A DNA stretch of 60,800 nucleotides, the filler included, from Sphacelaria rigidula (Eukaryota), in NCBI GenBank assembly GCA_964200075.2. It is 7 parts of 7 records of this genome, joined end to end, with 100 filler letters (N's around TTAATTAATTAA, not from the genome) between each part and the next. Parts side by side here need not be neighbours in the genome. Positions count along the whole stretch, not along the records: positions 52,202 to 60,800 come from CAXNAA020010636.1; 6 more parts are not named here. One strand, written 5' to 3'. A model generated the notes under the pieces. The model had not been told where the DNA came from. It was given only the letters and a program-made list of their open reading frames with translations, and did not search any database. Each line of letters begins with the position of its first letter. The first letter of the stretch is position 1. Made by a program: the position numbers and the translations under genes. This document shows, one piece after another, positions 12,584 through 60,800 of this stretch.

Positions 12584-13027
12584 AACACGGGATCTTACAA
12601 ATTAGGGATGGATCTCTTATTGGGGATGAGAAACCCGGAGAAATAAAATCTTCGTATCCACACCAAGTCTTCGAAATATGGTTCCATTTCTTCGCCAACT
12701 GACAGCATTTGACAACTGCTACACGCCATGGGAATTTGGATTTCGATCACCGAAATGTTGGGGTCCTAGGTGAAAAAACAATTTCGAAACCATTTTGGCG
12801 TCCGTTCGGACACCCGAAATTCCCCAAAATTGGTTTTTCATCTAGGACCCCAACGTTTCGGTGATCGAAATCCAAACTTCAATGGCGTGTGGCAGTTGTC
12901 AATAGCTTTCAGTAGGTGAAGAAATGAAACCATATTTCGAAGATGTGGTGTGGATACGAAGGTTTCAATTCTCCGGGTTTCTCATCCCCAATAAAATATC
13001 CATCCCCAATTTGTAAGATCCCGTGTT
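12584..13027. mobile_element. 444-bp near-palindromic MITE inserted in the gypsy chromodomain
   Basis: Termini AACACGGGATCTTACAAATT...AATTTGTAAGATCCCGTGTT, arms ~200 bp; perfect 4-bp TSD TACT (12580-12583 / 13028-13031). Confidence 0.93.
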
Positions 13028-15782
13028 TACTCCTCCGACCTGGGCCTGGCGCGTAACCTACCACTTTTTCGACGGTGTAGCGTTCTATTGTGGGCAACGT
13101 TCCGTCTGGTTGATATGTCTCTGGTAGGGGTATCTGTCTACCTAAGAACAACTCGCTCAACTTGTCAAAGTCTGGTGCTGGCGCGGTTTCTCGCGGGTGA
13201 TATTTCTTCAAATGAGCGAGATGTACTGACGTTTCCATAAAGCCGTCGCCTAACTTGATTCTCTATACAACCGGCGATCGTCTCTCGGTTATCGTGAACA
13301 GACCTCTCCATGGTAACTGGAGTTTGAGGTTCGGCCCTTCTGAATCTTGATACAGTCCATACAAAAGTACTTTTTGCCCCGGTTTACGCGCTGGGAAAGA
13401 TTTGAACTTGTCCTTGTTCTCTTGATCGTTCGCTCTTTTTCGTAGGGCTTGTTTCGCAATTTCAAATCCAAACTAGAGGTTTTCTCGTGTTTCATTGGAA
13501 AATTCATCGGGTGTTGCTGCTTGGCTCTCCTCAGGTATGCCGAGAATAATGTCAATTGGCAACCTGGGGTGTCTTCCGAACAACAAAAAATACGGTGATT
13601 CTTGTACTGTATTATGATAGGAGGTGTTGCACGCCATTTGGACGAATGGAAGCATGGATATCCACTTTTTTTGTTTCCGACTGACATATGCATAGCTAAC
13701 ATCGCGTACATAGTGGAGTGGACGCGTTCCGACACTGAATTACCGTGCGGACGTAGTGGTGTCGCACGAGTTTTATTGAAACCCAACTCCTCTTACAGTG
13801 CGTATATTATTTTGTTCTCGAACTCTGCGCCCTGGTCGGAGTGAAGCTTCACCGGGATGCCAAACGTCGTGAAAATTCTGTCGATAAGGGTTTTGGCTAT
13901 CACCGTGGCTTGTGTTTTCGGGACTGGAATGAGCAAAGCATACCTCGTGAGGTGGTTCATTACTGACAGTACATATTTGCAAAGTACCCCGGCAGCGGAC
14001 ATTGAAGTCGTTTCGTATTCGACCAGGTCAACCGACACTCGTTCATATGGCCTTTCTACCGGAACATGTCCCATTGGCAATTTTTGCCGGCGGGGCGTCT
14101 TTCGGTGTTGGCAACTTTGACATTCTAAGCACTAATCCTTTATTTCGCGTTACTTTGACATTCTAAGCACAAGTTGGTCACAAACTGTGCTTCGTTTTTT
14201 TAAGTGTCCCGGCAAGTAAGACTCGAATAAAATCCCGTCATGTACTGAACGATGTGACATCGATGTGATCGATTCTTTTTCTGGTGTCGGAGCATCTTTT
14301 TCCGTCATATATTTGATGTAGGGTCCGTACTCTAGTGCTTGCTCTTCTGGCAATTGTTTTGGGGTCGATTGACGTGAAGAGGTTCGCTGCGCTTACGTGT
14401 ACTGATTTCACGGTGAACAACTGTCGATCACTTTGCACCTGTTCCAAATTATCGAGCTTCTCAGCTGAAATCTGGAACTGATGTTGTGGCTTAGCTATTT
14501 GTAACTCAGGGTCTTCTGGGACGTTACGGCATATCGGCGTCAGCAACGGCTTGATTTCCGCTTCCTGTCGCTTTTCAAACGCGAACAGCCGTGAGAGAGT
14601 GTCTGGTACAACATGAAGTTTCCCCGGCTTATGTTTGACCGTAAAATCATACGACTGCAATGAAATCGCCCACCGGGTCAACATATTACTTGTATCTTGC
14701 ATTGCATACAAATATCGACGAGCGGCATGGTCTGTTACACACGTAAAGTGACGTCCCCACAAAAACGGTCTAAAATGTTGGATCGCTAGTACGACCCCGT
14801 AACATTCTTTCATGGTGGGCGAATAGCGGGCTTGGGCGTCGTTGAAACGTTGACTAAAGTATGCTACGATTGCATCGTCTTCGCCCTTCTTCTGGGAAAC
14901 GTAGGCCCCGGCCCCTCGGTCTGAAGCATCGACGTTTATGGTGAAGTCTTTCGTGAAATCTGGGACATGAAGGACGGGTGCCTCGGTCACTATTTTTTTT
15001 ATGTTTTCCGAAGGCTTCATCATGTTCAGTATTCCAGACTTTCGACACCTGTTTTGCCGCCTCTTTTTTCGTGAGGTCTACCAGTGGTGCTATGGTTGTA
15101 GCAAAGTTTGGTATGAGTTTCCGTACGAAACTCATTGCACCGAGTACTGATCGCATCTCTTTGATGTTGGTAGGTTTCGGCAAGTCGAGGATAGCTTTTA
15201 GATTTTCATCACTCACTTTGGTGCCATTTGCGGACAGTACATGGCCCAAGTATTTGACCTGCTCTGGACCAAATTGGATTTTTGTCGGCTTTAGCGTAAG
15301 GTCTACTGTTTGCAGTGCTTTGAACGTGCTTTCTAGTAGGGTGAGGTGACTCTCCCAGCTTGATGAACAACAAATTATGTCATCCATATACACTAGTAAT
15401 CCACTCTTGGGTCCAAAGTGTGCAAATGCTAGTGCCATTATGCGTGAAAAGAAAAAAGGTGAACACGCTAAACTAAATGGTAAACGGTTGAACACCCATT
15501 TCCCTCTTTGAGTTACAAACGCTGTTTTCTCTTTTTCGCTCTCTGCCACTGGTATCTGGTGGAGTGCACTTTGTACATCGTCAACTGTTATGAATTTTGC
15601 CCCCGCTACTGTGTCTATGTGACTTTCGATAGCTGGCATGGGCCATGATTTGCGAATCAAGTTTATCTTGTCGTTGCTCGATAATCTACTCAAAATCGTG
15701 CTGTTCCGTCTGCTTTTGCGATTATTGTAACTGCTGATCCCCACGGGCTCGGGCGTTGTTCGACTATACCATCTTTTCCCAT

Positions 15783-16032
15783 GACTGCTGTCGAGATAGC
15801 CCCCCCCCCCAAACCGGCCAAAACTGTGCACGAAGGCGATGATCATAAATGCCGTTAGAGCTGGTGTCGTGTTCCACGACGCGACCTATTTGGGCGTTAT
15901 AGCTGATTTCGGACTGCTACAAGCCTTTCATGTGGGCGGGATTGCTGCAAATGAGCTCAATAGTGGGATCGCAGCCGGTTTGTCGGACGGTCTCCCGTGC
16001 ATTTTTTGTGGGGGGCTATCTCGGCATTAGTC
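15783..16032. mobile_element. 250-bp MITE (GAC...GTC termini, poly-C/poly-G TIRs) inserted in gypsy RT
   Basis: gactgctgtcgagatagcccc...ggggctatctcggcattagtc; TSD CCAT both sides; removal restores VDQMGKDGIVEQRPSPWGS. Confidence 0.88.
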
Positions 16033-16664
16033 CCATCTGATCGACGTATTTGTCGATTGCGTCCTGCACTCTGGGGTTTGCTCTAAATGGAGCTCGCACT
16101 ACCGGCTGAGTCCCAGGTTTGAGCGGAAAACGTGCTTCATCTAACGTACAACAGCCCAACTCCTGCGGAGTAAGTGAAAACACAGAATGGTATTTTGCGC
16201 AAAGATCCAGTATTTGAGAGCATTGTTCCAGGGAAAAGGTCGTATTTTCGAAAGCTTTGCGTAAAGCTGGATGTAATTCCTCTTTCGCACTTTCTCTCTC
16301 TGACACCTTATTTCCCGCCATTGCACTGACTGTGGCTGGTTTTGTTTCTCGTACTGGGGTGATATAGCCTGAAATCGTATTACGTTTCTGGTTCACACAT
16401 GTCGGTTCGACGGGTTGGCGATTTTGTACCATTTTGTACCATCGCCGCTATATTTGTTGGCAACTATGTACACACTGTCCTTGCAACGATGATGCGCGTG
16501 AACGTTTGGGGCACATCGGGCGATCGAATATTTTCTTTGATTATTATGCGTGGCTCTACGACGGCTGCTGTTGTTTTCGACGGGGTATTTTCCGTTTCAA
16601 CTAATTCTGTCATCTCACTCTGCGGAGAGGCACATCGCATTTCTTCGTGAGAGAAACTGGAACA

Positions 16665-17109
16665 AACACGGGATCTTACAAATTGGGGATGGATCTTTTA
16701 TTGGGGATGAGAAACCCGGAGAAGTAAAATATTCGAATCCACACCAAATCTTCGAAATATGGTTCCAGTTCCTTGCCTACCGATAGCCATTGACAACTGC
16801 TACACGCCATAGTAATTTGGATTTCGATCACCGAAATGTTGGGGGTTCTAGGCGAAAAAACAATTTCGGAACCATTTTGGTGTCCGTTCGGACACCCGAA
16901 ATTCCCAAAAAATGGTTTTTCACCTAGGACCTCAACATTTCGGTGATCGAAATCCAAATTTCTTTGGCGTGTAGCAGTTGTCAATAGCTATCCGTAGGTA
17001 AGGAACTGGAACCATATTTCGAAGATTTGGTGTGGATTCGAAGATTTTACTTCTCCTGGTTTCTCATCCCCAATAAAAGATCCATCCCCAACTTGTAAGA
17101 TCCCGTGTT
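16665..17109. mobile_element. 445-bp near-palindromic MITE, copy 2
   Basis: Same family as 12584-13027; TSD AACA (16661-16664 / 17110-17113). Confidence 0.93.
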
Positions 17110-18499
17110 AACAGCGTTTGAACAGTTCACACTGACTACAGAACAATGCGTCGTTCCGGGGTGTGTTGTATTTTGTGAACGCTGCTGTTTTCGATGCGAT
17201 GCTTTGGTTTTTATGCTGCAGTCGAGTCATCCTACGATATAGGGGGGGTATTTGGTTGCACGAAAAAAGAGGCTCATAAATGTGTCAGACATCCTTCCAC
17301 ACNNNNNNNNNNNNNNNNNNNNNNNNNNNNNNNNNNNNNNNNNNNNTTAATTAATTAANNNNNNNNNNNNNNNNNNNNNNNNNNNNNNNNNNNNNNNNNN
17401 NNAAAAAAAAAAAAAAAAAAAAAAAAAAAGTCAAAAAGAGAAACAAAGAAAAAAAAGACGGAAAAAAAAAAATCAACAAAAGCAAAGCACCGAAAAAAAT
17501 GGCCGATCTAACAAAAAAGAAAAGAAGAGGAAATCAAAGAGCAAAAAAAAGAGAAAAAAAACATGAAATAAAAAAATAGCGTACTTGGATACACTTGGTT
17601 CAGGAAAGGTGGATCCAACCGACCCCGATTAGTAGGTCCGCTTTTTTTTTTTTTCTGATACTGACTCCCCTTGCATGCCTTTCCCTTCGCAACGATTGCG
17701 ATGCTGATTGTATTGCCATGGAAGACCGTAGCCGACCCTTACCTGACACTGAACACCCTGTGCTTGGGGACCCTTGGAAGCCGGTCCGACGGCCAAGATC
17801 CCAGAGCCTAGACAACGCCTTTCGTAAGATCAAATCCGACAGCAAACCCGCACCAAAACTCTCGCACCTGCCCCTCCCTCCCCCCCATTTGTTCTGATGA
17901 TATTTTATGACACTCCGACCGTCTCAAAGGAGGATTTTTCTCTCATGTCTTCTTGACGTCTCTCATTGTTTTTTTTTTTTTGTCATTCTTTTTTTGTTTT
18001 CTCGGAAGAAACCGCTCAATGAGCGCTTCCATCTATATTCACGAGCTTGTGCGGGCCGGCGTCCTGACCATCAATAGCAAGCTCTGAAAAACCGACTTCT
18101 CGTGTTTCTTGTCTGAAGTCGTCGAAATACCAAACCGTGATCTATTAAGCCGTTAATAAGGATTTGGGACTTCTGTGGGTCTACCCTCTAGATCTTGCGC
18201 GCACAGGGGTGATCATGCGTGAGGAGTCGAGCGATTGAGAAGAAGCGAACGATGCTTTTGATGATTTCATGCTTCTCCGCCGGCAGTATCCTCTGGTCTC
18301 TTGCTCACAATCCCCCATCCACTCACCGCCCTTGCTCTATTGTCGTGGTGGGTTATACATGTATACATGTGTGTCGAACTTGCTCTTGAAGCCGTGATCC
18401 CCGCGATCGCCTTCACCGTCCCTCGCAGATCTTGTTTGCCAGCACAGTACGGTACATAACACCCCCTCCAGCACACACAAGCACACCCCCTCAAGCACA

Positions 18500-18581
<82 letters not shown>

Positions 18582-18612
18582 GCACACACACGCACGCACG
18601 CACTACGCACAG

Positions 18613-19022
18613 GTCGCGACTTGAGGGCAGGAGGCACCTGGCTGGGCGTGAGCCGCTGCGGAAAATTCGGCAGCTTGACCAACATCACGTCGACGTGGGG
18701 ACAACTCCTCGTGTTCGCAGAAAATCACGTTAAATCCACATGCTTCGCTTCGGCGGCCATGATGATAGCAGCGGCCGCCGCTGCCGCCGTCCCGCTCGTC
18801 CAACCGCAAGCGATAGAAGAGGGGGGGACGGGTTCGGCGGCTAGGTCGAGTGCGGTTGGTGTGGCTGCGGGGATGCTGCTTGCCGGGTTGGTGACTGCGT
18901 CGGTTGGGATAGCGTCCGCGAGGCGAAGGGCATCGCGCAGGAGTCGAGGGGAACTCGTATCCGAATTTTTGAAGAAAGGGAGTCAAGAGAACGCGGAGCA
19001 GTACTGCAAACGCCTGTATAAG
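18613..19022 (+). CDS. TANGO2: TANGO2/NRDE-family protein, internal exon 1 in window
   Basis: cacag acceptor, GRDLRAGGTWLGVSRCGKFGSLTN ... SRGELVSEFL ... AEQYCKRLYK, gtgggt donor; hallmark TANGO2 motifs; the N-terminal NRDE exon is not seen on this contig. Confidence 0.9.
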
Positions 19023-19237
19023 GTGGGTGGGGGCATTACTGTTTCCGTTGCGATGACACGCCTGCAGCTGGGTGTGTGTTAACGTTGGCCAGGGAGATCG
19101 CGGCGGGTTGTGGACTGTACAGCTTTTTCTCGATTCGATGTGCCAAAGTCAGTATTCATCTTGCTCTTTGTCTTTGTCAAGGGAGGTGGATGAGAGCATA
19201 TAAAAGTGAGACCACGGTGATTGTGGGACGTGTGTGT

Positions 19238-30355: not shown

Positions 30356-30532
30356 CTTGCCGAGCTCCGTTCGCTCTCGCCGTCTCTCCGCAGCCGCGAC
30401 AGGATCGGTCGCCTTCTCTACCGCGCGCTGCCGCTTCCTTTCCATCCGCTTACGCGAGATTTCCATGTTCACCGCTGTCAACGTTTCCAGGAACTTACCG
30501 CTCCCCACCTTTGCCTCGAGGAGTTCCATGAC
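30356..30532 (-). CDS. UTP20: UTP20 exon
   Basis: VMELLEAKVGSGKFLETLTAVNMEISRKRMERKRQRAVEKATDPVAAAERRRERTELGK; matches the UTP20 C-terminal RKRxRA...DP..AA motif; cag/gtacga splice sites, 59 codons. Confidence 0.88.
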
Positions 30533-30860
30533 CTGTTACGTAAGGGAGAACGAAAAAATCAAGCACACGGGAATGGGGCAAACTGTGTGGGGTCGATCGA
30601 GGACGCAGTTCAAGGAAGCGAAGCTTCTGGAAAGCTGAGAACAAGGACTCGAGTTTCTCTGCTGCCAGTGAAGGGTTATCAACAAGGATTCGAACTGACC
30701 TCGCAATCCACACTACATGGCACCTGACGTACCCATGCTTGCAGCGTACGACTTGAACAAAAGCCGAAACAGAGTCAGTCAGCTTATATTCTGACATCCT
30801 CCACCAACCTCCTCCCACGTCCGACCTCCAACTCCCAGAACGGCAGACACAAAAATATAC

Positions 30861-32231
30861 CTCAGTGGCAAGCTCCGCAGAAGTCTGCTCCTTCACCGCG
30901 CCACCAACACCATTACCACTACCCGCGCCGCCCACCATGCCCCCAGCCCCGGTCGGTAGCAAAGCAGACTTATGCTCCACCCCACCGGCCTCAGCGTCCA
31001 ACACTGCTCTGCGCAAGGGCAGCAACATGACGGACAGAAAAGCAGCAGACACCTCCGGTTCGTGGACAGCGGCCATCGCAGCGAACCAGCTGAAGACGGC
31101 ACGGCGCCTCGCCTCCCCCTTGTGCACCACCATGTGTGACATGCGGTTGAATACCCATCGCAGCGGGTCCACCGGCTTCGTGGTCATTGATGTTGCTGCT
31201 GCTGCTGCTGCTGCTGCTGATGCAGATGGAGATTTAAGAGGCGTCGATTCCGCCGCTCCGGCCCGGGAGGAACCGTCACCCCTGGAAATGTCTTCGGAAT
31301 CGTCCTCAGAACTATTTTCGGAGTCGTTCTCGGAATCTTCCCCCGAACCTTCCTCTTCATCGGATCGTATTTCTTGTTCTTCGCCGTCCACTGCTTTCCC
31401 TCCCTCCTCCTCCTCCTCCCCGCTTTCATCGCCATCGAAGCACAGATCCGGGTTCAGGTGCATGGCACGGCCGACAAACACGAGATTTTTCACGCATTGC
31501 TCACTGAGCTTGGGGTCCACCTGCGACCTGTTCAGTTGCGCGCAGAAGTTCTGGCAAAGTCGGAACAACACGCGCCTGGTGCGCAGGAACTCTCGACCCC
31601 CGTCGTCGCTCGACTCTTGCTCTTTCCCCCTGCCCTTGGGGGTCTGACCAGGATCATATGCCGCCGTCGCAGTGCCGCCGCCTCCCCCGCCACCTCCGTG
31701 GGAGAGGGTCCCCGGATCTCTCTTGGAGAAGAACGAACCCCAGAACCTAGCTGCCGCGAGTCGCACCCAAGCGTGAGGATAGAGTAGGGCTTCCAGAAGC
31801 CGATCGAACAGCCCGCTTGCTAGCGACGAAGACAATGATGAGGACTCTGAATTCTCGTCTCGGTCGCCACCACCATCACCATCCCGCCTGCCCCTGCCCC
31901 AAAGGCTACCAGAAGAGAGCGCCGCGTTACACGCTCCGGGAAGCACGTCAAACGCTTTGCCGACAGAAATCACGGCGTGATACACGCCTTCCCAATCGCC
32001 CCTGCTGTCGCCATCTCCGGAGCCAGCTGAGTCCGCCCAGCCGAGATCTCTCGCGGCGGCGATAACTTCCGCCGCTCTGGGTGGGAGCATATTGGTCAAC
32101 GCCGACAGCAGCCACGGCAGGCGCTTGCCCGTAGTGGTTCCCTTGCGAATGAGATCCGGCCGCGCCTGGACGAAGATTCCGGAGGCTTGGGCAGCGGTTC
32201 GTCGGAGCGCTAGGGCTTGTTGGTCGACCGC
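30861..32231 (-). CDS. UTP20: UTP20 exon (457 codons)
   Basis: LLYPHAWVRLAAARFWG, KLSEQCVKNLVFVG, LRWVFNRMS, RRAVFSWFAAMA, LLPLRR motifs of the UTP20 C-terminal HEAT region; cag/gtatat splice sites. Confidence 0.9.
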
Positions 32232-32571
32232 CTGAGCAGAGCATGGACACAATAAGCATAGTGGGAAGGACGTGTGGGGTGTTGTTTTGCCCGTGTCGAG
32301 CTGCTGGCTGAGAGTGCCGCAAGACCTGATCTCCACCCAATTACTTGATCTTTCGTTAGCTCGCATGCACCACGCGCGTAAGCAGAGCAACCGCACTCGA
32401 AACGCACAGCGAAGCCAATAGACGAGCAGTGCGGTCACACAATAAAAATACATATGAACAAAAATCATGTGAAATGGGAAGCAACACACCGAAATTCGCG
32501 GAGCAACACGGACTCCTTCCCTTTCTACTGCCCACATCCCAAATTACTTAAAGTTCTCTCCCGACTCTCAC

Positions 32572-38829: not shown

Positions 38830-41800
38830 ATGGTACAGTCTGGCATTTTGAGGGTACGTTCGCATAACAGTATTGCAGCGTGGGATGGTACGGCAAAGAG
38901 TGGTGAGGAAGTAAGAGAGAAGTTCATGGTTTTCAAGCTACAGATGACAGCGTACTTTAAGCAAGAGTCCTGTGAAGAGGCTCTTTACACATTTTTTCCA
39001 ATTAGGGTACATTTTCAAAATGAGCGGGATTTGATCGAGAGGTTTGGGACCGAGTTGGTGGGGAAGGCCAGCAGAGCATGGAGCATACTAGTCGAAAAAA
39101 TTACTTTCACTCCGCTTGTGTAACAACTAGTGAGACTGGGAAACCCCAGCGAGGGATGGAAGTACGTTGTAGACTACTACACCGTTTCTCCAACCACCGA
39201 AAAGGCACAGTTGGACCATGCATGGCAGACACTCGATATGAACTTGGGAGAGGACCCCCGTATGTTTCTAGATAGAGCGAAATTGAGAAGGTACAAACGC
39301 ACTAGGCTTGGAGTCGTGATATCAGATGCAGATGCGAATCGGCACTACATACGCCGCCTTTCAAGTGACTTCGACATCGTTCGTGGTGTATTGCTTGCTT
39401 TCGATGAAGTAACAACAGATACCCTGGAGCGCAAGGTGATGACGGCGCATGGTGAGATGGAACTGGCCAGGAGTAGGGCGGGAAGGAATCAGGATGGGGT
39501 ACAAGGCCACGCGCTCGTCGCTGTCACTGGGGGTGGCAGAGGTGGGGGCGTGCTGTAAAAGGGACGACAACAGGGCGGTGAGGGACGTCGACAGCAGGGT
39601 GGTGTTTTTTGTCATTTCCACAATACGACCCATCACGATGACTCTGAATGCCACGCACAACGAAACATGCACGCACAAGAAAGTCGTGGTGATCGTGGTG
39701 CGTGGAATGATGTTCGCCAGCAGCAATATCAAAGTACAGATAGTTTTGGAGGCCGTGGGGGTAGTGGATGCGGTAGGATTCCCACCCAATCACCGCAGCT
39801 CACTCAGCAACAACAACAGCAGCAACAACGCCAACAACCCCAGCAACATCAGCAGCAAGCGAGATGTGGAGGACGGGGCGCAGGGCGTGGATTTGGTCAC
39901 AGGTACGGTGCTTCGGGGCGTGGGGGCGGCAATACCCATCCCGGCAGCCAACTACCCCACTATGATCCGCCGCAAGGTGGGTATGACTACTCAGCTTATC
40001 CTGATGGCTTATACCGCTCTGTAGGCAACGAACCCCCAGTTCACCACGCCGACCCCCGTAAACGATGCATCACATGCGATGAACTGGGCCACATGCATAC
40101 TTTTTGCCCGTGGCGTAGAGTAGTGACGCCGCAAGTCGATTCGGGGGTACGTCATGCGAATCCCACCCAGAATCAACCTCGTCACGGAGGACACCAGCCC
40201 CCCCCCTGGACTCATTCCTACGGATCGGTCAACACCGTGCAACATTACGGTGACCAAGGGGGGTACGAAGAGAGCAGCCGCGACGAAAAACAGTGGAACG
40301 GAACGGAAGAAGACGGGTGGGTGTTGGAAGTTAGCAGCGACTTCAGCGGTGCAGGCTACGCGCACTGTATCCAATTTCCCCGCGACCCCCCGCAATCCTC
40401 CGCAGCTGCCACCAACTATCAGATCCAGCCATCACCGCAGCAAGGTGAACTTCAACTGCAACACCCTCACCAACTACAACAGCAACAACAACCTCATCAC
40501 GCCCAACCTGATTCCAACCTGCCTTCCTCCGGTTCAGCTGCATCCTCTACGCCGCTTCACCTGTACATGGCACATTCTGTGTCCCGAGGCGAGTCACGTT
40601 TTGAGTTGGGTGATTTTACTTTGGGGATTGCTTTGCTTAACCAGAGTGGGTCGGGGTTTGACGTGGATGATGGTACAGAGGAGTGAATAAGTGATAATGG
40701 TGCTTCACACCATATCACTGGTTCAATAGTTGGTATGTTTGATTTACGCCCCCCCCCCAAAGGAAATGAGCACGTGATTGTGGGGAACGGGACAATTCTC
40801 CCCGTCAGAGCAGTAGGGAGTTTGAAGCTCGAATTCCACATGAGAAATTCCACCGCCCCGACATCTGTCGGTGCGTCCTCAGAATTTTGCGTGCAATTGA
40901 CTGACGTTTACGTACTTGAAGGTATACATTTCAACCTTCTTTCTCTGCACCAAGTGCAGAAGAAGCATGATGTACTCTTAACTGAAATAGGAGTATATAT
41001 GTTTGACGGTAGGCTTCGCTTCGATCGCAATGAGCGGTCTTCGTCACAAAGGGCCACTCGTTTACCGTCAACATATGAGAACCCCCCACTTGCCGTACCA
41101 GCTGTAAGCGCTGTAACTGCCCCTCCCCCAAGCGTTCGTGTCCAGTCCGTTCCTCCGGCGAACGTGGTAACTTCAAGTGTTGGTGTACAGTCCGCTTCAC
41201 CGGCAAGCGTTGTAATTGCCCCTCCCCCAAGCGCTCGTGTCAAGTCCGTTCATCCGGCGAACGTGGTAACTTCAAGTGTTGGTGTACAGTCCGCTTCACC
41301 GGCAAGCGTTGTAACTGCTCCCACGAATGGTGTTGCTTCCCTCCGTGCAGTCCAAGGGCTTCACTGTCCAGACTTGAGTGTATTCAAGGATGAAGCCCTG
41401 ATGGCTGGATTTGACATGACCCCCTCCTCCGAAGATTTTTTCCGCGTTTTCTGATCGAAGAAATGGGATTTTGGGCTTAAAACGGGATGGCCCTTGCTGT
41501 TCTTGCCCCCAGCCCTCATCCATTTTCAGTGGGAAAACCAACGCAAGAAGTCGACCTTAATTTTTCCACGTTTCCCTCCCCCACATTCATGAGACGTTAC
41601 TCCGAGAAACTGAAAAACAACAGGGCATTTCATTGACGGGGGTACTGGCGCCGTGTGCTGGGTGTTTGGAAGCGAAGGGACAGAGAGCAGGTATTCCTCG
41701 AAGCCTGGGAACGAGGGCAACGACTGTACTTGGCAGGGTGCATCTCGACCTCACCGGTCCACACCCTCGTACTTTGGGCGCATCAACCCATATGCTGGGC

Positions 41801-43402
41801 TGCGTCGACAGCAAGTCGCGCTTCATGATGTTTTATGGCCTCGCACGTAAGTCTGACACGCTGGCGAAGGTGAAACGTTTCATCGCCGACGTCAGCGCCA
41901 TCGGTACCCCCGGTTGTTTTCGCATGGACAACGTGGGCGAGTTCACCTCCACCGATTTCGGCGCATTCTGCGACGATGCAACGATTCGTCGTGAGTACAC
42001 TGCCCCTGACACTCCGAAGCACAACGCTGTGGTGGAAAATGCAATTTGGAGGGTCATGAAGGGGGGCCATGCCGCCCGTCTCGAAGCGCGACGTCTGTTC
42101 CCGGAGTGCCGCTTCGACGACATACCTCACCTGGGGGAGAACATGGAGCGCCTGTGGCTGGAGGCCGCGGTGTGGGCAGCGGACGGGTTCAATCGTTCCG
42201 CTACTACGGCGAACCCGGGAATACTGTCGCCGTATGAAGTGTTCACCGGCAAGCGCCCGCCGCGACAGATTGTGCCGTTTCTGCAACCCAGCATGATGCG
42301 GGTCAACCGCCGAGGCAAGATGGATGCTCAGTCCGTGGCTTGCCATTACCTCATTAATGGCAGTAACCATTCTTCATCGACGGTCGAGGTCCTGAAGGCT
42401 GCTACCGGTGCCGTCTGCTACACCAACAACGTTGTCTGGACAATACCGCGTGTGCCACTGCAGTCGTCGGCAACGCCGATCGTCGGGGGGGAGGAGGCCC
42501 ATTCCAGTACCGTCGCCGCCGCCGCCGCCGCGCCGTCAGCAGAGCAGCATCACGGGACGCCGCTCGCCGGGGGGGGGAAGGTCCAAACGCCGCTCGTCGG
42601 GGGGGAGGAGGTTCATGGCAGCACCAGCACCGCCGTCGCCACACCGCTGCTCCCGCCGACGTATCACACAGTGGAGTTCGAACCGCCGCCGCCGCGCCCG
42701 CCGACTCCGCTGACTGAGCCGGTACTACCGCCGCCGACGGACCCGTCCACTACGCCGATGCACCGATCGCCGCCGACATCCCCGCCGATATTCTCCGGCT
42801 CTTCGGCCCCGATACCGTCCCCGATCCCGTCAGCATCTTCCTCGGCTGCGTCGCGCGATGCATCATCCGCCCCTGAAGTGGGGGATCATTCTTTCTCGCC
42901 GCTTCCAATCAACGTGAGGAAGGAGCTGGATCTGGAAACAGACCCCCAGCAGCCAGGGTGGATGCGGTCAGGGTCGACGCAATACAAGACCGACGAGGCT
43001 GCACTCTTGCACCACAGCTGGGGACTCATGCAGCAGATGGATGAGCGATCTTCGCTGTCTGCTCTCCTCACGCGCGGCGTGGTTGATGCGGGGCGACAGG
43101 GCGAGGATGGTGAGAAAGGGGGGCCAGGGGGGATACCGATGTGACTCGCGACGAGGCTGGCGACGCGTGAAGATATAAATACCGCTTTGCGTGAGCAGCG
43201 CCCGCCGCATATCCCACCGGAACTCCCACATTGTCCAGCAAAGGATCTTAAGGTCCCCAACGGATACACGCAGGTGGTGCGCTCGGAGTACGGTGATTTA
43301 TGGAGGGACTCGATGGGGCGGGAATGGCGGGGAATTCTGGAGGCGGGGACGATAGACTCAGCGGAAGAGCAACTCGTGGGCAACTGTATCCATGCAAAGT
43401 GG
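38830..43402 (+). mobile_element. Decayed Ty1/copia LTR retrotransposon (gag-PR-IN-RT start), truncated at contig end
   Basis: UBN2-type gag (MNLGEDPRMFLDRA, YIRRLSSDFDIVR); CCHC knuckle CITCDELGHMHTFC; protease *ISDNGASHHITG; pre-integrase H...H...CAGCLEAKG; integrase HLDLTGP / RMDNVGEF / NAVVENAIWRV; RT start PNGYTQVVRSEYGDLWRDSMGREWRG...AKW; stops at 39121, 40684, 43142 plus frameshifts. Confidence 0.95.
41107..41320 (+). repeat. 99-bp tandem duplication (~2.2 copies) in copia PR-IN linker
   Basis: APPPSVRVQSVPPANVVTSSVGVQSASPASVVI repeated in frame. Confidence 0.9.
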
Positions 43403-51485: not shown

Positions 51486-52789
51486 AAAATCTTTTTGTGC
51501 ATACTACTCGTGCATAATCTTTCTTACCTCTGGGTTGCTAAGGGTCTCGATATTTTGGGGAGGGTATAGCGCAGTTTCAAGTAGTACTTCTCCCTCGTGC
51601 GGTGGTATACGACAGTTGGCTCGGAGGTCATCTCCCATTATAGAGCTTATGACGAGCTGGATACCATCTTCAGGCACTACCAGTGTGCTCTTGCTGGGAA
51701 TGCCGGTTGTGCGTGTGCCTATGGGGCGCAACGGTCTGTCGTAATTCCACCGCACTGTGTGAAACGAAACATCTCCAGACACAATGGCAAGAGACGTACC
51801 CGGTACTCAATGCAGGACAATGACATCATCGCCAAAACTGCACCGATCAAGCAGGGGCGGTGCCGTGTGTTACCAGGTTAGTCTGCAGTTCACAGTGATA
51901 TGCTCAAGTCGCGCTGATTTGGGAAACTCGAGAAGTTGTAGTGCGGAGAGAGAATGTGGGATTTACTGCCGGCCCAAAACCAGAATTTCACCACGCAGGC
52001 TACCCAGCAACCAAATACAGAGGATTTGAATGGAAACGGCTCCGTCAATTTTGCAGAGCAGTACTGGGAATATGCCATTCAGATGAAGCCAGGAGAGATG
52101 ANNNNNNNNNNNNNNNNNNNNNNNNNNNNNNNNNNNNNNNNNNNNTTAATTAATTAANNNNNNNNNNNNNNNNNNNNNNNNNNNNNNNNNNNNNNNNNNN
52201 NTAGACCAGTATACATACCTTGGCGTAGAGATCTAAAAAAACTGTTCTTGGGATGCACATGTAATGCGTGAGTGGACCGCGTGCTCAGAGGACCGCATCT
52301 GGATTCGAACACCCCAGGACCGACATGGCAGGAGGACCGCGCGGGCGTCGTCGATGCCGCGACCGCGCCTAGGCCCGACCTGGGCCGCGCATTTTATCGA
52401 GCCAGGAGTAGCAAAGGCAGACGAATTGCACCTACTGTTGATCGGCACGCACAGCTACCAGCTGCATACACGGCCCCAACGTGGCTTGGTACTCCCGCGT
52501 ACTACTTTTGTGGCTCGTTAATCACAGGTACTGAGGTGTTTTGGGCCGCGCATTTCATGGAGCCAGGGGTAGCAAAGGCAGACACGTATTGATGATCGGC
52601 ACGCACAGCTTCCAGCTGCATAATACTCCCGGGTACTGAGGTGTTTAGGAGTTAAATACGGTCCTTTAAGCACGCGGTCCTGTCACGCATCACAACGGAT
52701 CGCAGAGAGTGATCCACAAACACCTGATCAAGCGAAATATAATATCCGCGAAAAAGTCATGCCAACCTGCAATTACTGAGATTTCATTC

Positions 52790-54450
52790 AGGCGCGGTCC
52801 ACAAGCTACTCCTGCAGCGCTCCTTTATATACAGTGCGCACAGGAAAACACCGCAAGGGTTAGCGAAACGAAATAAATGGAACCCCAGCGCAGGTACAGA
52901 GCGGGCGTCGAAAACGCTGGTGTCGAACATAACGCAGATCAAGCACCCCACATACTCATCGACCAAGCACAAGCAGTCCGTGAAAACGCTATCTTCCAAC
53001 TGTTACATGGAACACAGAAGTCCACACGACCCGTCTCGGGTTGCAGCTCTTCGGAACCCGCAAGTACTGAGACGTTGTGTGCCCGCGTTGCACGACCTCA
53101 CTCGGCCTAGGGAGGGAGCGAGCGTCGAAAACCCTGACCTTACATATACAACAGGGCAATCATCCGAAATGTAGAGAAATCAACCCATATATGTCTGTAG
53201 GTCCGTCGAACCTGGAAGTACTCGTACTTCATATGACCGCGGTCCACGAAACAACCCCCGAGACATTCCTCTCCAAAACTTCTCCCTGTCTGGGGCCGTG
53301 TCCGACTGCAGCTCGTCGAAACCTGCTAGTACTGACACTTCATATGGCCGCGGTCCATAACATAACTCCGAGACCTTCCCATCTGATACCATTACTGAAG
53401 ACAAGCGCACGGCGCCGGAACCTCAGCCTAAGAGGAGAGCGACCGTCGAAAACCCCGACCCTCATGGCCTGTAGCAACACACCTTCACGTTGTCAAATCA
53501 AAGCAATAGGGGTATTCTCCTCATACGAGCCCCGTCTGACCGCAGCTCCCCCAACCCTGCAAGTTCTGACACTTCATATGGCCGCGGTCCATAACTCCGA
53601 CACATTCCTCTCTTAAACCTTGCGCTAGAACAAGGACACCGCGCCGGAACCTGAGCCTAGGAGGAGAGCGACCGTCGAAAACCCTGACCCCGATGACAAA
53701 GCAGGTGAACCATTCCAAAAATGTGCAAATCAAGCACTAGTATTCCGTAGAAACGATATTCTCCTATGTGCACACTCTATAACAAGATCGGGCCGGTAGC
53801 AAACCACCTTAATACTGTCCCCCGAGATGGATAGATCGGTTGAGTGGTTGTCACACTTCAAGCCCCCCCCCCCCGCCTGAAGGATCGAGCCATGGTCACA
53901 TCGAAGTCGTACCCGTTAAAAGCACGACCGAAACACTCGCTGAAAAAAACGAAGGAACAGACAAGGTCACGACATCGTATACTAGGACGCGAAAAAAACA
54001 GGATAAACATTCAACAAGAGCAAAGCACAGACACCAATGTCCGATCTGAAAATATAATATAAAAGATATAGAAACAAAGCACAGGCACCAATGTCCGATC
54101 TGAAAACAGAATAAAAATGAGATCTAACTGAATATTCCGCTCATGGAAGCCGTATCCGGTTGCAGCTCCTCCGAACCTGCAAGTACTGACACTTCATGTG
54201 GGCGCGATCCACGATCGAAGTCGGAGAAATTGCTATTTGAAAACACCTGTGAAGAGCAGCGCACTGCGGCGTTCGAAGCGAACCAGCGTCGAAAACCTTG
54301 ATCTAAAAAAGAGCAGTCGAATCATCCAAATTCGCCATCTTCGCAAGTGCACCAGAACTTGTGCAAGGTGGGGCTCCCATAAGCTGTATCACACTGTACG
54401 TTGTCGAAACCTGCGAGTACTAACGTTCTATATAGTTGCGGTCCACAACG
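52790..54450 (+). repeat. Degenerate subterminal tandem array
   Basis: Motif gcagctcNNcgaacctgcaagtactgacacttcatatggccgcggtcca at ~53042, 53196, 53307, 53541, 54160, 54398; motif gNcgtcgaaaaccctgacc at ~52905, 53122, 53444, 53673, 54286; separate ~55-bp tandem duplication at ~54018-54125. Confidence 0.85.
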
Positions 54451-54723
54451 TAAGTCTGATACGTTCTGATGTGAAAACTCCACTCAAGATCTTCTACTGT
54501 GAAACTGCTTCTCTCATCGCACTGTCATCACGTGTTGGCCAAAATGACAGGAGTGTGCGAAGTAGCACTCTCGCACGAGCAACTTATCCCTAACCTTAGG
54601 TCGACGTTATTGACAGATACACTACTGTTCCAACGGCCGTTTTTTCGTGCGCGCCGCGACTCCTTCATCTTTTCTCTCCTAATCGGCGTTGGTGTGTCCG
54701 CCCGCAATGCACAATCCCGATCC

Positions 54724-57300
54724 TCACCGCCCGCTGCCGCCTACTCTCGCCCTTTTCTTTTTCCCTGTCCCATTATCCGAAGGGGGCAAGGGCAACCTCG
54801 GCCTTTGAACGGCGGCTACTTGCGGTTTAGCGTTGACCGTCGTGTCGAGGCCGGAGCCACCCTTAAGTTGCCGTGGCGTCATGCCCACCCGGGAACTGCC
54901 GTAGATGAGCCTTGTGATATTCCGACCCAACATTGGTCTCTTCGTCTTCAGAATCGGGAAGTGTTCGTCTGGATATATCTTGTTCATTTTCTGCTCTGCC
55001 TTGACCCCGAGGAAGGACACACAGTGTTCACTAATTTTCTCCGCTGCTCTCCGCTGCAGCGGGGAAAACACCGAGGGGATCCCACGCCACCAGCACCGTC
55101 GCCCCCGGCGTGTGCAATCTGGCGAGGAGACTCGCTGCGGCGGTTACCGACGGGAACTGATCAGCCAAGTCTTCCCGGCACACGGCCGTTGTCTGTGCGC
55201 CCGCTATCACGTCCATGTGTCCGGCCAAGGTTTGCCCGTGCGCAGTTTCATTCCTCTCGTAGGATAGTGGAAGTGTCGTTGCCCCCTCCCCGATTAATGT
55301 GAAGAGATTCCCAGAGGCCGGCTTCCGCCACGGCAGGAGGGGGTCGATCGTCCTCGCGCGTATCTGTCTCAGGACGACGGTGTCATCGGGTGCATGGGGT
55401 GGGTAGGTCACGACAGTGTGAACGACTTTTCGCGGGCACAAAAAACACTTTGTCGGCGTAGAGGTGTGCAGATCCGCGTACAGTAGAAACCAGTCATCCA
55501 CTGTGGCGGAAGTTCCTGCATAACACCACCGCGACGACCGTACATCGTATCGTTCGCTACGGTTGTAAGGAAGAGGAGGACTCTCACCCAATGACTATCT
55601 ATACCTGTGGATGCCGATCCTCTCCTCCGCCGAATATGGCTAGCGCACGTGTTGGGAGGACCCGCCACGTCGGGTCCATATGACAACCGTAGTCGTCCGC
55701 TGGAGTGGTTCGCCGGTGGAATCCGCGGTCAACATCGCCCTTGAAAGGGATGATGTTAAATGGAACGTCGAACGCCTTTGTTCCGCCGCACAAGTCAGCC
55801 TGCGGATACCCGATATAAACGAGGGTGGCGACGTGAGTTGTGTCTGCGTCCAGCCGGACTGCTGTATCGTGACAAGTGCTCTGTCTATTTGCACATAAAC
55901 TTGAATATTCTCCCGTACTGGATCATCTAGGGCCAGGCATGTATCAATACGGCGATTACAGGACCGTGTCAGTCAGCGTGTACCACTGGCGCGACAACGT
56001 ACCATCATCTTCAACGCCGTCTTGCAGGCGTGTGCCCAGTCGGTGTCGTATCCTTCGGTGTTGGTCTTCTTGCGGAACTCGCGGCTCTTGTCCACGACGA
56101 TGACGACGGGTAGTGCATGAAGCCCCCCGTCAAGCATCACGGCTTCTAGTTCTTGCCGCAAAGATTGCATTTTTTGCGGGTCATTCACCGGTACCACTAT
56201 AGTTCCGACTCGTGAGCGGAACTCGCCATCTCCATCCTTCTTCACACTGAGAGCGGTCTTCACGACGTCCGCGGCGACGAAGCTCTTGCATGTCCACGAT
56301 CGCACATGCTTCATGGAGGGTACATACATTCGGCAAGACAGACGCGGACTGAAGGCGAAGATACCACGATTTCGGTTCTTTCAATCGAAGTGGATCATGT
56401 CCTGCTATTTAGGTCCGGTGCCGGTAGTATCTCCCCTTCGGGTTAGCAACAATACGCGCTGTCGCCTCGTTTCATTCGCGTGAGGATGTTGTCCCAGGTG
56501 CGGTGCATCGACCAAACCGGCCAACAAAAACGCGTACATCGCGACTGACGCTATATGGGAGTGTGGCGGCGAATGTGTCGTCCCGGCCGTGGTTACGCCA
56601 TCGTAATTCTAACATCGTATGTGGGAAGGTCGAGTTACTCGTCTCTGCCGACTCACCTCTCACGCTGTACAAGTTGGACGAGATCCACAAACGTCGGTTT
56701 CAGTGACGTTCCGTGCAGTTCGTTATCCACCACCGCGACTTTCCTGGCATGGGCGGAGTAGTCGGTTTCGTTCCCGAAGTAGTGCAGCGATACCGGGATA
56801 TTCTTCAAGAACGGCGGCCCATTATTGGGTTCGTATGGCGTTGACTTCCGATTTAGGTGCAGTGACTCTTCGGCGGCGCCCTGGCGTCGTAGTTTCAGGT
56901 CGGAGGCGATGAACTGACCCGCCTCGACTCGGTGGAAGCCGCCGAGTAGCTCTGCTTGAACCTGTGTGCAAATAGCGTGGCGCATAATGCGAAGGGGATT
57001 TGTATCTATTTGTACGGTGCACGTCACCGCGAGAACTTGAGGTACCGCGGGGGTCACTGCATTCCCGTCTTGGCTACTGTCACGTCCACCCCAGCGTAAG
57101 GTAATGAGTAAATGAGTCTCGCATCGTGCTGTATCATCTCCACCTTTGTGGTGTCATTATTGTTATCGTATCATCGCACTTATTCCATAAACGACGACGG
57201 TGAGGTCATTTTCACACGATATGTAGTGGTTTTCGAACCGACACCAGAAAGTATATTTTCCCGTTTGTTTGAATGTTGCGACCAGTGTGCACAACTCTTG
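54724..57300 (-). pseudogene. Intron-containing pseudogene: ParB-N-like domain plus beta-class N4C/N6A DNA methyltransferase-like domain
   Basis: Exon 56961-56657 (cacag / gtgagt): AELLGGFHRVEA...LKNIPVSLHY...ARKVAVVDNELHG...TFVDLV. Introns 56002-55800 and 55587-55516. Last exon: FLLYADL...VVHTVVTYPPH...WRKPASGNLFTLIG...DQFPSV...LLARLHTPGATVLVAWDPLGVFPAAAE[K]ISEHCVSF...KKKRAR; stops and frameshifts present. Confidence 0.55.
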
Positions 57301-57422
57301 TCAGGCGAACGGCAGAAGATATGCTATATACATGTGTGAAACAAGTGTATGCGAAAAAACAATGCCGCCCCCCTAGGAGCTTTCGTTTTGCTTTATTTCC
57401 TTCACAGGGGGGGGGGGGTACT

Positions 57423-57633
57423 TGTAATGGGAGAGATGACCGCGTGCTTTGGGGGCCTCACCCTGGCTCTAAACATGTCAGGATCGATTTTTTTCAAACC
57501 GATCGGGCGTGTTCCTCCAGGGACCACGGCCCTGGCCCTAACCCGAACACTAACCCCAGCCCCCGCCGTAGCCTTAGGGGTGTTAAGAAGTAGAGTGCGG
57601 TCCCCTGACGACGCGGTCCTCTCACGCATTACA
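57423..57633. mobile_element. 211-bp MITE sharing the TGTAATG...CATTACA TIR, with telomere-like internal repeats
   Basis: tgtaatgggagagatgaccgcgtgctt ... gacgcggtcctctcacgcattaca; internal ccctggccctaacccgaacactaacccc. Confidence 0.7.
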
Positions 57634-58580
57634 GAACTCATCTTGCATGCCGTACTAGGTGGGCAAGCCTAAAGGCAGCTTTGTAGTTTGCAGGCCCATA
57701 CGCTGGCCAATATTTCGAGCTGAACCCTAGGATTTGTTGCGTGCAATTAACATTCTGAATATGAGAACTCACGCGTGGACCCCATTTTCTATTGTTTAAT
57801 TATTGATCGTGTCTTAGTGATACCATTGATAGTCGCTGATTTGCTTCAAGTCTTTGAAATTAGAAAATGTGTCGATCCACGCGTGAGATAGTTTTTTTTT
57901 CCCCATTCATTGTCCATATCGAGTGTTACCATCCAGCTGTGAATATTCGTCGGCGACTGGGAATTTTACTACCCGGGTCGGTGGCACACGGGATCGGCAT
58001 TTTGCAGACCCCTCAGCGGTTCACGTTCGTGATTGTGTACAAAAATAGCGTGTGGGATGTGGCTGGTGCATAACCAAGTACAAGAAAGGGGTCAGCTTGT
58101 TTTTTGTACTCCTGCTTTCGGTGGTTTTGATTTACTAACCCCCTTTTTGGCGACATAGCCGTGGTATGTTCGGCGGGTCGCATGAAGGATGAGTTTCGTT
58201 TCTTTTGCACTGTTCGGCCCGAAACGTATTGATGATGTACGATTTGGATGGCAGCATCGAATGATTTCATGCTTTTCCCTGGATCACCTCTTCCACGGGC
58301 AGCCACGAGGTACACCCTGCCGCGACCGTCTTCCTAGCGCAAGGCTGAGGTCCTCCTGCCCATGCTGCTTCACGATCGTGACGGTTACCACGAACAAACA
58401 CGCAAGCGAACAGAATAAAATATACCCTTGGTTGCCCACCTGGCGTTGTGAGGCGGATATTTCCCAGCTTCACCGCAAACCAGTGGCGAGCCCGTAGGGG
58501 GTACACCCTTTACGATCGGTGCGGAGCGCGGCGGGTGGAAGGGATCTGGCAGCTGCCGCCCGCCCTCCCCTCGACCGTAA

Positions 58581-59018
58581 AACCCGGGGTTTTACAAATT
58601 GGGGATGGATTTGTTTTTCAGGATGATAAAGCCGTATCACCACAAACTTCGTATCCACACCGCGTCTTCGGAATATGAGCCCATATCTTTACTTCATAGT
58701 AGCGATTTAAAACTACCTTACGGCGTGCAAGTTTGGATTCCGACGACCGAAATGTTGGGGTCGTACGTTAAATACGCATCTCGGGGAATGTCGCTGATCT
58801 CATCGGATAAAACCCGCCGAAATTCTTGCTTTACCCGGAACCCCTTCATGTCGGTTATCAGGAGCCGAACTGGTATGACGCGTGGTAGTTGTCGAAAGTT
58901 ACCAGGAGTCGAAGATGTGGACCTATATTTGAAAGATTTGGTGTGGTTACAAAAACGTCAATCGTGTGGGTTCTCCTCCCCAATGAAGAGTCAACCCCTC
59001 ATTTGCCAATTGTTTGTT
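58581..59018. mobile_element. Diverged relative of the 444-bp palindromic MITE
   Basis: aacccggggttttacaaattggggatggat...cttcgtatccacacc...gatttggtgtgg...ctccccaat; TSD not preserved. Confidence 0.7.
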
Positions 59019-60800
59019 CGAAGTTCCACAATACAATCCCCTTTTAAACCGATCGACGTAATGTAATATGCCATATGAGGGAGCGCGAAGCAGGTGGAGG
59101 GCGTGTGTAGGTGGGGCGGGGTGGGTGGGTGGGGGGGGGGGGGGGAGGAGGGGCATGTGAACCACGCACGCCCGTGCTACGTAGGGGCGCAAAACGTTTT
59201 ATCGACATCGGGATGAACAAATACAACTGCGGCCCGCAATGAAGAAATAATTAGCTTAGGATATCAGTTTGGGTCTGCGACGGAAAATAAGAAAAAACGA
59301 CTGAGAAACACTTCTCAAACTGGGCGATAAGATAATGAACATGAAAATGAGAAACAGTGCGGATACGTACCTATCATAGGCATAAGGAATAAGAATGTAG
59401 GTGCCTGGGGGGCCCCTTCCTAATCGCGAAACGTGCACTCTACATTTAGACCCCCTCCCTCCCCGTGCTAAACTGCATCTTTGTGAGAGCGGTGTAAGTT
59501 CTTGATTTACGGCTGTTTCATGCTAAACACTGTAGACCTGCCGGTGTGTTTTTCATTGGGCATTTTGTGTGCAACGAGGGGGTGGTGGAGGCAGTACATG
59601 GAGGATACGAGAAAGCGATAATTTCAAGAAAATAAACAGGACCCGGTCGGCCGGAAATATTACGAAATTCGACATAAGTAAAAAAGCAATCTGTGCTGGT
59701 GTTTGCGCCCGAAATACGGATTTGGGCCTCGACCCCAAATTGACGTTTCTTATCTCCGGGCCGCGACTGCAAGAAAGGACAGGAAACCGACAGGATTAAA
59801 GAATATCAAAAATAAAGTGGAACACATCGCGAGAGTAAGTACTCTTCACTACATCAACTGGAAGTATGATGAAGGCGGAACCCCTACAACACTTCATGAG
59901 TATGTGGGGTGCTTGGTCTGCGTTATGTTCGACACCAGCGTTTTCGACGCCCGCTCTGTACCTGCGCTGGGGTTCCATTTATTTCGTTTCGCTAACCCTT
60001 GCGATGTTTTTCTGTGCGCACTGTCTATAAAGGAGCGCTGCAGGAGTAGCTTGTGGACCGCGCCTGAATGAAATATCAGTAATTGCAGGTTGGCATGACT
60101 TTTTCGCGGATATTATGTTTCGCTTGATCCGGTGTTTGTGGATCACTCTCTGCGATCCGTTGTGATGCGTGAGAGGACCGCGTGCTTAGAGGACCGTATT
60201 TAAGTCCTAAACGCCTCAGTACCCGGGAGTACCAAGCCATATGAGGGTCGTTTATGCAGCTGGAAGCCGTGCGTGCCGATCATCAATACGTTTCTGCCTT
60301 TGCTACCCCTGGCTCCATAAAGTGCGCGGCCCAAAACACCTCAGCACCTGTGATTAACGAGTCACAAAAGTAGTACGCGGGAGTACCAAGCCACGTTGGG
60401 GCCGTGTATGCAGCTGGTAGCTGTGCGTGCCGATCATCAGTAGGTGCATTTCGTCTGCCTTTGCTACCCCTGACTCGATAAAATGCGCGGCCCAGGTCGG
60501 GCCTAGGCGCGGTCCCGGCATCGGCGACGCCCGCGCGGTCCTCCTGACATGTCGGTTCTGGGGTGTTCGAATCCAGATGCGGTCCTCTAAGCACGCGGTC
60601 CTCTCACGCATTACAGTTACCCTCCTCTCGCCGCATTGATTGCTTCACCATGGGCTATGTATCGACAACTTGGTCTGCGCGAACAACGCCTGACGCGTGC
60701 GTGTTGTTGCAGGTGTTGAGAAAATATATCCCTCGTTCGACAATCAATGTGACCGAGCCGGTTTCGAAACCAGCCACGCACAGTTACTGGCGGGAGTTCT

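Follow-up and report, generated by a model that had tools for sequence, protein, structure and literature searches.

We analysed a 60,800-nt stretch of DNA (the window) from the brown alga Sphacelaria rigidula, which consists of seven contigs of about 8.6 kb from a 244-Mb assembly, separated by N spacers. The last contig, C10636 (positions 52202–60800), carries on its minus strand a gene that is conserved and under selection in a family of mobile elements and is broken in this copy. The gene sits within an 8.4-kb unit bounded by long TGT...ACA inverted arms. Our preferred reading, which we hold tentatively, is that the window contains a dead copy of a spliced accessory gene, and that its relatives may encode a DNA-binding protein of a Ginger2-type transposon with a beta-class amino-methyltransferase fold and impaired use of S-adenosylmethionine (SAM). 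The original prediction had described a single-exon, frameshifted beta-class methyltransferase-like domain at this place; it misread part of the anatomy, and the underlying feature is real.

A 187-aa open frame of the gene was searched against 1.84 billion representative sequences, and six matches were obtained at E ≤ 0.001. Three of them, P0001, P0002 and P0003 (E = 1e-27 to 4e-10), are true homologues; the other three were repeat proteins and were discarded. A fourth homologue, P0010, was added by a profile search. All four are Logan protein predictions. We also looked for homologues of greater length and obtained none, which is weak evidence, and no relative was found in viral contigs or in JGI metagenome contigs. 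The window and the four homologues share 33–57% identity with one another, and all five contain the sequence WDPLG[VS] (WDPLG at 55070–55084, minus strand, in the window) in place of SAM-binding motif I. The D-x-x-x-G-x-G SAM loop was not found in the family, the second glycine of motif I being missing from all five members; a strict motif I pattern matched 44 of 61 beta-class proteins and missed 17. After the next strand, where the motif II position is acidic in 43 of 44 beta-class proteins, four of the five members read G-x-K, and only P0001 has a Glu (G-M-E). Motif names and numbering were compared with our own beta-class profile and with PMC10406627. Because four homologues that have open frames and are only 33–57% identical carry this loop as well, WDPLG is, on the evidence of these sequences, a family trait older than the decay of the C10636 copy. 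The earlier suggestion that the non-canonical motif I reflects something other than simple decay was thus borne out.

The decay itself is visible as a perfect tandem duplication of TCTCCGCTGC at 55038–55057 (no strand), which shifts the frame of the C10636 copy. P0001, P0002, P0003 and P0010 all read in a single frame from WDPLG into an HC..F.G segment, across the site of the duplication, and the half of the window gene downstream of it matched P0010 with 57% identity (E = 2e-42) and has the same C-terminus. The extra 10 bases were absent from five contigs of run X4 and one contig of run X5, which come from two other samples; these are not the three runs that matched best, and an assembly origin of the duplication is conceivable. 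Since the homologues are single-framed and the six contigs lack the extra bases, the frameshift is genuine and derived, as had been proposed, and a frame conserved in four homologues is broken in the C10636 copy.

All of the peptide strings quoted in the original prediction were located on the minus strand: FLLYADL at 55469–55489, TYPPH at 55394–55408, PWRKP at 55319–55333 and WDPLG. Their assignments fared differently. We compared the region with the paralogue contig C5306, which is 82% identical to the window and whose translation matches the NCBI model P0011. The frame of FLLYADL, which had been taken for an N-terminal lyxGD strand, showed no coding signal: differences at codon positions 1/2/3 numbered 2/6/1, with no synonymous and seven non-synonymous codons. 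An alternative frame gave 1/2/6 (p = 0.042, uncorrected for three frames and based on few sites). TYPPH, proposed as catalytic motif IV, reads THPPC in C5306 and lies 108 residues from motif I, compared with 135–207 residues in the 44 beta-class proteins in which both motifs were located. A 1-nt indel at 55444 separates FLLYADL from TYPPH in the paralogues. On these grounds, the 5' end of the ~260-aa single-exon model is probably incorrect; the gene reaches well upstream of 55515. TYPPH is likely intronic: a CAG immediately precedes the point near 55363 at which three of the four homologues start, and the corresponding residue of P0002 is Gln. WRKPASG had been compared with the RVLK motif; its WRK aligns instead with the beta-class segment iiW.K, PW[RK] being found in the window and three of the four homologues, and a separate WRVL lies in an upstream exon. 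A profile built for the upstream part of the original model was effectively the window sequence alone. A weak PRORP/NYN match to residues 10–49 of the 187-aa frame (E = 0.0025) was set aside, as this part of the frame has no coding signal.

We infer the exon structure, the fold and the role of DVPF as motif IV as follows. The last exon (54724–55363, minus strand) ends in a stop at 54724–54726, and its 5' boundary was placed from an AG acceptor and the starts of the homologues. It would contain the W-x-K motif (PWRKP), a variable region and an FPS helix, then WDPLG and the HC..F.G strand, and finally a tail that is basic and of low complexity. The middle region (55364–55604, minus strand) has at least one stop in every frame and is probably intron, short exon and intron; it contains TYPPH and FLLYADL, the latter likely off-frame. 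Fourteen candidate middle exons were tried, and none scored above a placeholder of 12 X. An exon at 55605–55799 (minus strand), outside the originally predicted coordinates, contains the candidate catalytic motif IV, DVPF (55758–55769, minus strand), and the candidate RVLK motif, WRVL (55656–55667, minus strand), 35 residues further on; the median distance in 22 beta-class proteins measured was 34. DVPF is kept in the window, in the sister copy C1162 and in C5306. A likely GT-AG intron follows upstream (55800–56002, minus strand), and then an upstream exon (56003–56329, minus strand) of uncertain 5' end, which ends in the helix preceding motif IV. The upstream exon differs from C5306 at codon positions 1/2/3 by 17/10/28 (third-position excess, p = 0.005); the excess was weaker in the DVPF exon (p = 0.087). 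The gene is likely spliced, because P0011 joins across 56002–55800, the GT and AG are retained in the copies, and the indels of other copies cluster there, at 55803–55837. Two earlier candidates, YIGYPQ as motif IV and a short intron at 55985–55929, were abandoned in view of this P0011 splice. Contigs from two presumed-RNA runs are unspliced here and may be DNA, and are uninformative on expression and splicing.

On these models, a beta-class amino-methyltransferase fold is likely, if unproven. Our own profile aligner gave a colinear 251-column alignment of the gene to a 65-sequence beta-class profile with a score of 41.1. The shuffle maxima were 28, none of 200 column shuffles or 200 block shuffles being as good, and the best of 332 single-sequence decoy profiles scored 28.8. 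Three of 176 real decoy open reading frames (ORFs) outscored the window model, two of them PrmA-type methyltransferases, and blind ranking of beta-class proteins against decoys gave an area under the curve (AUC) of 0.77–0.82. The C-terminal profile alone scored 32.6 against shuffle maxima of 21–24, and the predicted resemblance of the C-terminal half to the beta-class motif X-I-II region was upheld by the profile alignment. DVPF and DPLG are 149 residues apart, the middle exon not counted, compared with 135–207 residues in the 44 beta-class proteins. Motif IV in the 65 profile members was DPPY (31), SPPY (21), DPPF (4), DLPY (3), SPPF (1) or DVPY (1), and none was found in four. Of the 30 ESM Atlas matches listed for P0010, a single one bears a Pfam name, a PF01555 cluster with a score of 0.87, which we regard as a lead; the window ORF had no match there.

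Several results weigh against the fold assignment and the reading built on it. At the curated Pfam cut-off, PF01555 matched neither the window halves nor the homologues nor the S. rigidula genome itself, and the Pfam N6_N4_Mtase match expected from the original prediction was not obtained. No methyltransferase was found in Pfam, PHROGs, NCBIfam or PDB sequence searches. HMMER with our own beta-class profiles gave weak matches: shuffles equalled or beat P0010 in 4 of 1000 cases, the spliced window model in 143, P0003 in 233 and P0001 in 336 of 1000. The HHalign result lacked significance, with E = 0.098 and an equally good outcome for 19 of 151 block shuffles. The N-terminal half alone was not significant either (27/200 and 37/200 shuffles; AUC 0.61), so that the candidate motif IV depends on register and spacing. 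The positive statistic came from an uncalibrated aligner of our own, with exons chosen beforehand. An AlphaFold model of P0001 was of low confidence, and Foldseek found no match to it. Finally, the usable-looking DVPF and the strongly conserved WDPLG would fit an active enzyme equally well.

The unit that carries the gene has a left arm at 52260–52959 (plus strand), starting TGTAATGCG, and a right arm at 59896–60615 (minus strand), ending GCATTACA, which are 93.5% identical over 720 columns, a 20-nt gap included. Homology of the left arm with an arm of C1162 runs on to about 53488; beyond that point, degenerate direct repeats occupy the subterminal region as far as about 54500. The element ends, TGTAATGC...GCATTACA, agree with the TGTNR...YNACA termini described in PMC2836005. 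The arms, 700 bp in the window and at least 1249 bp in common with C1162, exceed the terminal inverted repeats of about 45–300 bp expected for this type. At least 42 genome matches to the interior and at least 66 to the arm were found, mostly short elements with the same ends. One such ~210-bp miniature inverted-repeat transposable element (57423–57633, plus strand; TGTAAT...ATTACA ends) lies within the unit and has many genome copies; members of its family (loci L006–L032) share the TGTAATGC...GCATTACA ends, show 4–5-bp target duplications and have an interior that resembles a degenerate (TAACCC)n repeat. Among 28 paired ends, nearly all from ~210-bp relatives, exact target duplications of 4 bp occurred at 8, of 5 bp at 10 and of 6 bp at none. 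No target duplication was found at the outer ends of the long element in the window, which counts against the preferred reading.

Two copies elsewhere in the genome, C1162 and C5306, are more complete on the 5' side. The sister copy C1162 is 97% identical over 55483–56442 and extends about 12 kb to the same arm, which adjoins a degraded, apparently intron-containing integrase. This integrase matched rve at E = 6e-4, below the cut-off, and IS481 and IS3 models at E = 9e-8 and 2e-5, far below it; by eye it shows one His and a CxxC, and it has in-frame stops. No integrase was found in the window copy. In C14639, a 70% identical copy, the 3' end of the gene lies beside arm-type repeats. The window lacks about 1.4 kb of further upstream sequence common to C1162 and C5306, from which the C10636 copy is judged to be 5'-truncated at about 56442. 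In its place stands a segment (56443–57420, no strand) found nowhere else in the genome, within which a 166-codon open frame (57153–56653, minus strand) had no family match. Because the TGTNR ends, the 4–5-bp duplications of the short relatives and the degraded, Gypsy-like integrase of C1162 fit, the carrier is likely a Ginger2-type DNA transposon. At 55485, contigs of runs X6 and X7 pass from the gene into a sequence whose first letters are TG, and 55483 is where C1162 begins; this is probably another element inserted in a sister copy. Near another arm copy, contig C13501 contains a 399-codon open frame without a Pfam match in which a protease-like His segment can be seen by eye (L046:1650–2849, plus strand), as well as a weak Ulp1 match (E = 0.064; L046:5553–5957, plus strand), possibly further cargo.

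By our comparison, a gene of this kind already has a precedent in PAG2 (Plavaka accessory gene 2), a PF01555-plus-SET accessory gene of red-algal giant DNA transposons, for which movement between Plavaka, Zisupton and further elements is reported, most copies being degenerate (bioRxiv 10.1101/2025.02.11.637652). Both would be PF01555-type putative adenine methylases carried as accessory genes by large seaweed DNA transposons; unlike PAG2 as described, the present gene has no Pfam match to PF01555 or SET, a remodelled motif I, a brown-algal host and an integrase-type carrier. In eukaryotes, the bdelloid enzyme N4CMT is of the beta class and active, and is encoded by a host gene with a chromodomain (PMC8885841, PMC10406627), and a 4mC (N4-methylcytosine) enzyme is described from Marchantia (PMC12344493). 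With N4CMT and other beta-class PF01555 enzymes the gene shares a likely IV-before-I order, similar spacing and an aligned X-I-II region, in a eukaryotic, intron-bearing setting; it differs from PF01555 enzymes in having no Pfam match, DVPF rather than [DS]PPY, and WDPLG rather than DPFxGxG. The carrier resembles Ginger2/Tdd elements (PMC2836005, PMC10045372) in its TGTNR termini, the 4–5-bp duplications of its short relatives, its short non-autonomous derivatives and the Gypsy-like integrase, here in C1162. It differs from those tabulated in PMC2836005 in its arms (700 bp to more than 1.2 kb versus 45–297 bp), its size (about 15 kb versus up to 6.7 kb) and its extra accessory genes; no brown-algal member is among those listed in the tables consulted. 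The DAM-type methyltransferases of DIRS and long terminal repeat (LTR) retrotransposons are likewise transposon-borne adenine-methyltransferase domains of disputed activity (likely inactive versus catalytically intact; PMC4738411, bioRxiv 10.64898/2026.05.21.726589), but they belong to a different methyltransferase class and lie inside retrotransposon polyproteins. We found no report of the gene family in brown-algal or Ginger elements in the literature, supplements being outside the scope; relatives might be included in Supplemental Table 6 of the Bostrychia preprint.

In the foremost alternative, the intact relatives would be working DNA methyltransferases of the N6-adenine or N4-cytosine type whose SAM pocket has been remodelled, and would mark the element's own DNA, as has been proposed for PAG2 of red algae. 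We consider this unlikely. The retention of DVPF in three copies would fit it, as would the DVPY (1), DLPY (3) and DPPF (4) variants among the 65 beta-class proteins, the alignment of the invariant WDPLG with DPFxG as D-P-x-G, and the G-M-E of P0001. The MT-A70 family is active although its motif I has no G-x-G. However, none of the five members has the second glycine of motif I, four lack the motif II acid, the three copies with DVPF belong to a single genome and, being 74–96% alike, are not independent, and the gene has diverged past Pfam detection, whereas PAG2 and N4CMT are reported as PF01555 matches. The fuller claim that Ginger2-like elements brought an active, Pfam-invisible beta-class enzyme (DVPF...WDPLG) into brown algae, where it would write N6-methyladenine (6mA) or 4mC on their own DNA, is doubtful too. 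The original label of catalytically dead is tentative, because the candidate motif IV keeps the Asp and the aromatic residue. It is also rather unlikely that a real transposon accessory gene resembles methyltransferases only by chance or through a generic beta-alpha-beta unit. Every curated search was negative, the ESM score lay below 0.9 with 129 shared features, and the window ORF had no Atlas match; set against this, five motif-like segments occur in beta-class order with typical spacing, the C-terminal profile exceeded all its shuffles, and beta-class proteins ranked above decoys.

A decayed Polinton-like virus or virophage insertion, with the gene as a viral methyltransferase remnant, is improbable. 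To judge from C1162, the element would have an rve integrase, arms longer than 1 kb and a total length of at least about 15 kb, and protein-primed polymerase matches exist elsewhere in the genome. Nevertheless, polymerase, capsid and packaging ATPase were unmatched in Pfam among 57 frames of C1162 (the copies being decayed and incomplete), no paired end had the 6-bp target duplication given for Polintons in PMC10045372, the genes are apparently intron-bearing, and viral contigs contained no relative. Moreover, the strong polymerase match falls in sequence of 25% GC that does not resemble the element, and a weak one has only a nested repeat in common with C1162. Least probable by far is simple decay, in which an ordinary beta-class methyltransferase had its motifs eroded in a dead copy. 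The copy is indeed broken by the duplication, the truncation and the middle-region stops, but the WDPLG loop in four open-frame homologues refutes this explanation for motif I.

We return to the preferred reading, of a SAM-impaired DNA-binding protein. The intact relatives would be beta-class amino-methyltransferase-fold proteins that have lost normal SAM binding and are predicted to retain a DNA-binding and base-flipping surface. Such a protein might bind the element's own arms or subterminal repeats and aid transposition or expression. No methyl transfer is predicted, because the G-x-G loop is lost in five of five members and the motif II acid in four of five. Binding DNA without methylating it is predicted to be more probable than methylating through a rebuilt pocket, and falls somewhat short of an even chance. 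The C10636 copy itself would likely make no full protein, and would be mobile only with a transposase supplied in trans.

Other features were noted in the window. Frameshifted remnants of a Gypsy-type reverse transcriptase and RNase H lie at 14238–15885 (minus strand; RVT_1, E = 1e-20; RT_RNaseH, E = 3e-31), and LTR-retrotransposon remnants with Copia-like domain order at 39559–43144 (plus strand; Pol_BBD, E = 2e-7; rve, E = 7e-5). Host gene exons were found at 30495–32543 (minus strand; UTP20 C-terminal, E = 6e-6) and 18390–19082 (plus strand; TANGO2, E = 4e-10). A near-palindromic repeat with ~200-bp arms occurs at 12581–13030, 16662–17112 and 58578–58793, and also in C5306 and C14639. The second contig starts with a 1.6-kb segment between inverted repeats of 313 nt (98%) at 8702–9014 and 10636–10948, probably another small transposon. 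Elsewhere in the genome, a 645-codon frame on a stretch of 25% GC has a match to protein-primed DNA polymerase at C13:36859–37956 (PF03175, E = 6e-50); it is probably of organellar or plasmid origin and is unrelated to the element.

Two points limit the interest of the finding: the C10636 copy is dead, and the assignment of the fold lacks firmness. DNA methyltransferases are reported to be absent from brown algae (PMC13076208). If our reading is true, a transposon-borne beta-class derivative missed by profile screens would be an exception to that absence, and the epigenetic accessory genes of seaweed DNA transposons, as known from red-algal PAG2, would extend to a further lineage of hosts and a further type of transposon. 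The family would then represent a pseudo-methyltransferase, or else a SAM loop that is new and works.
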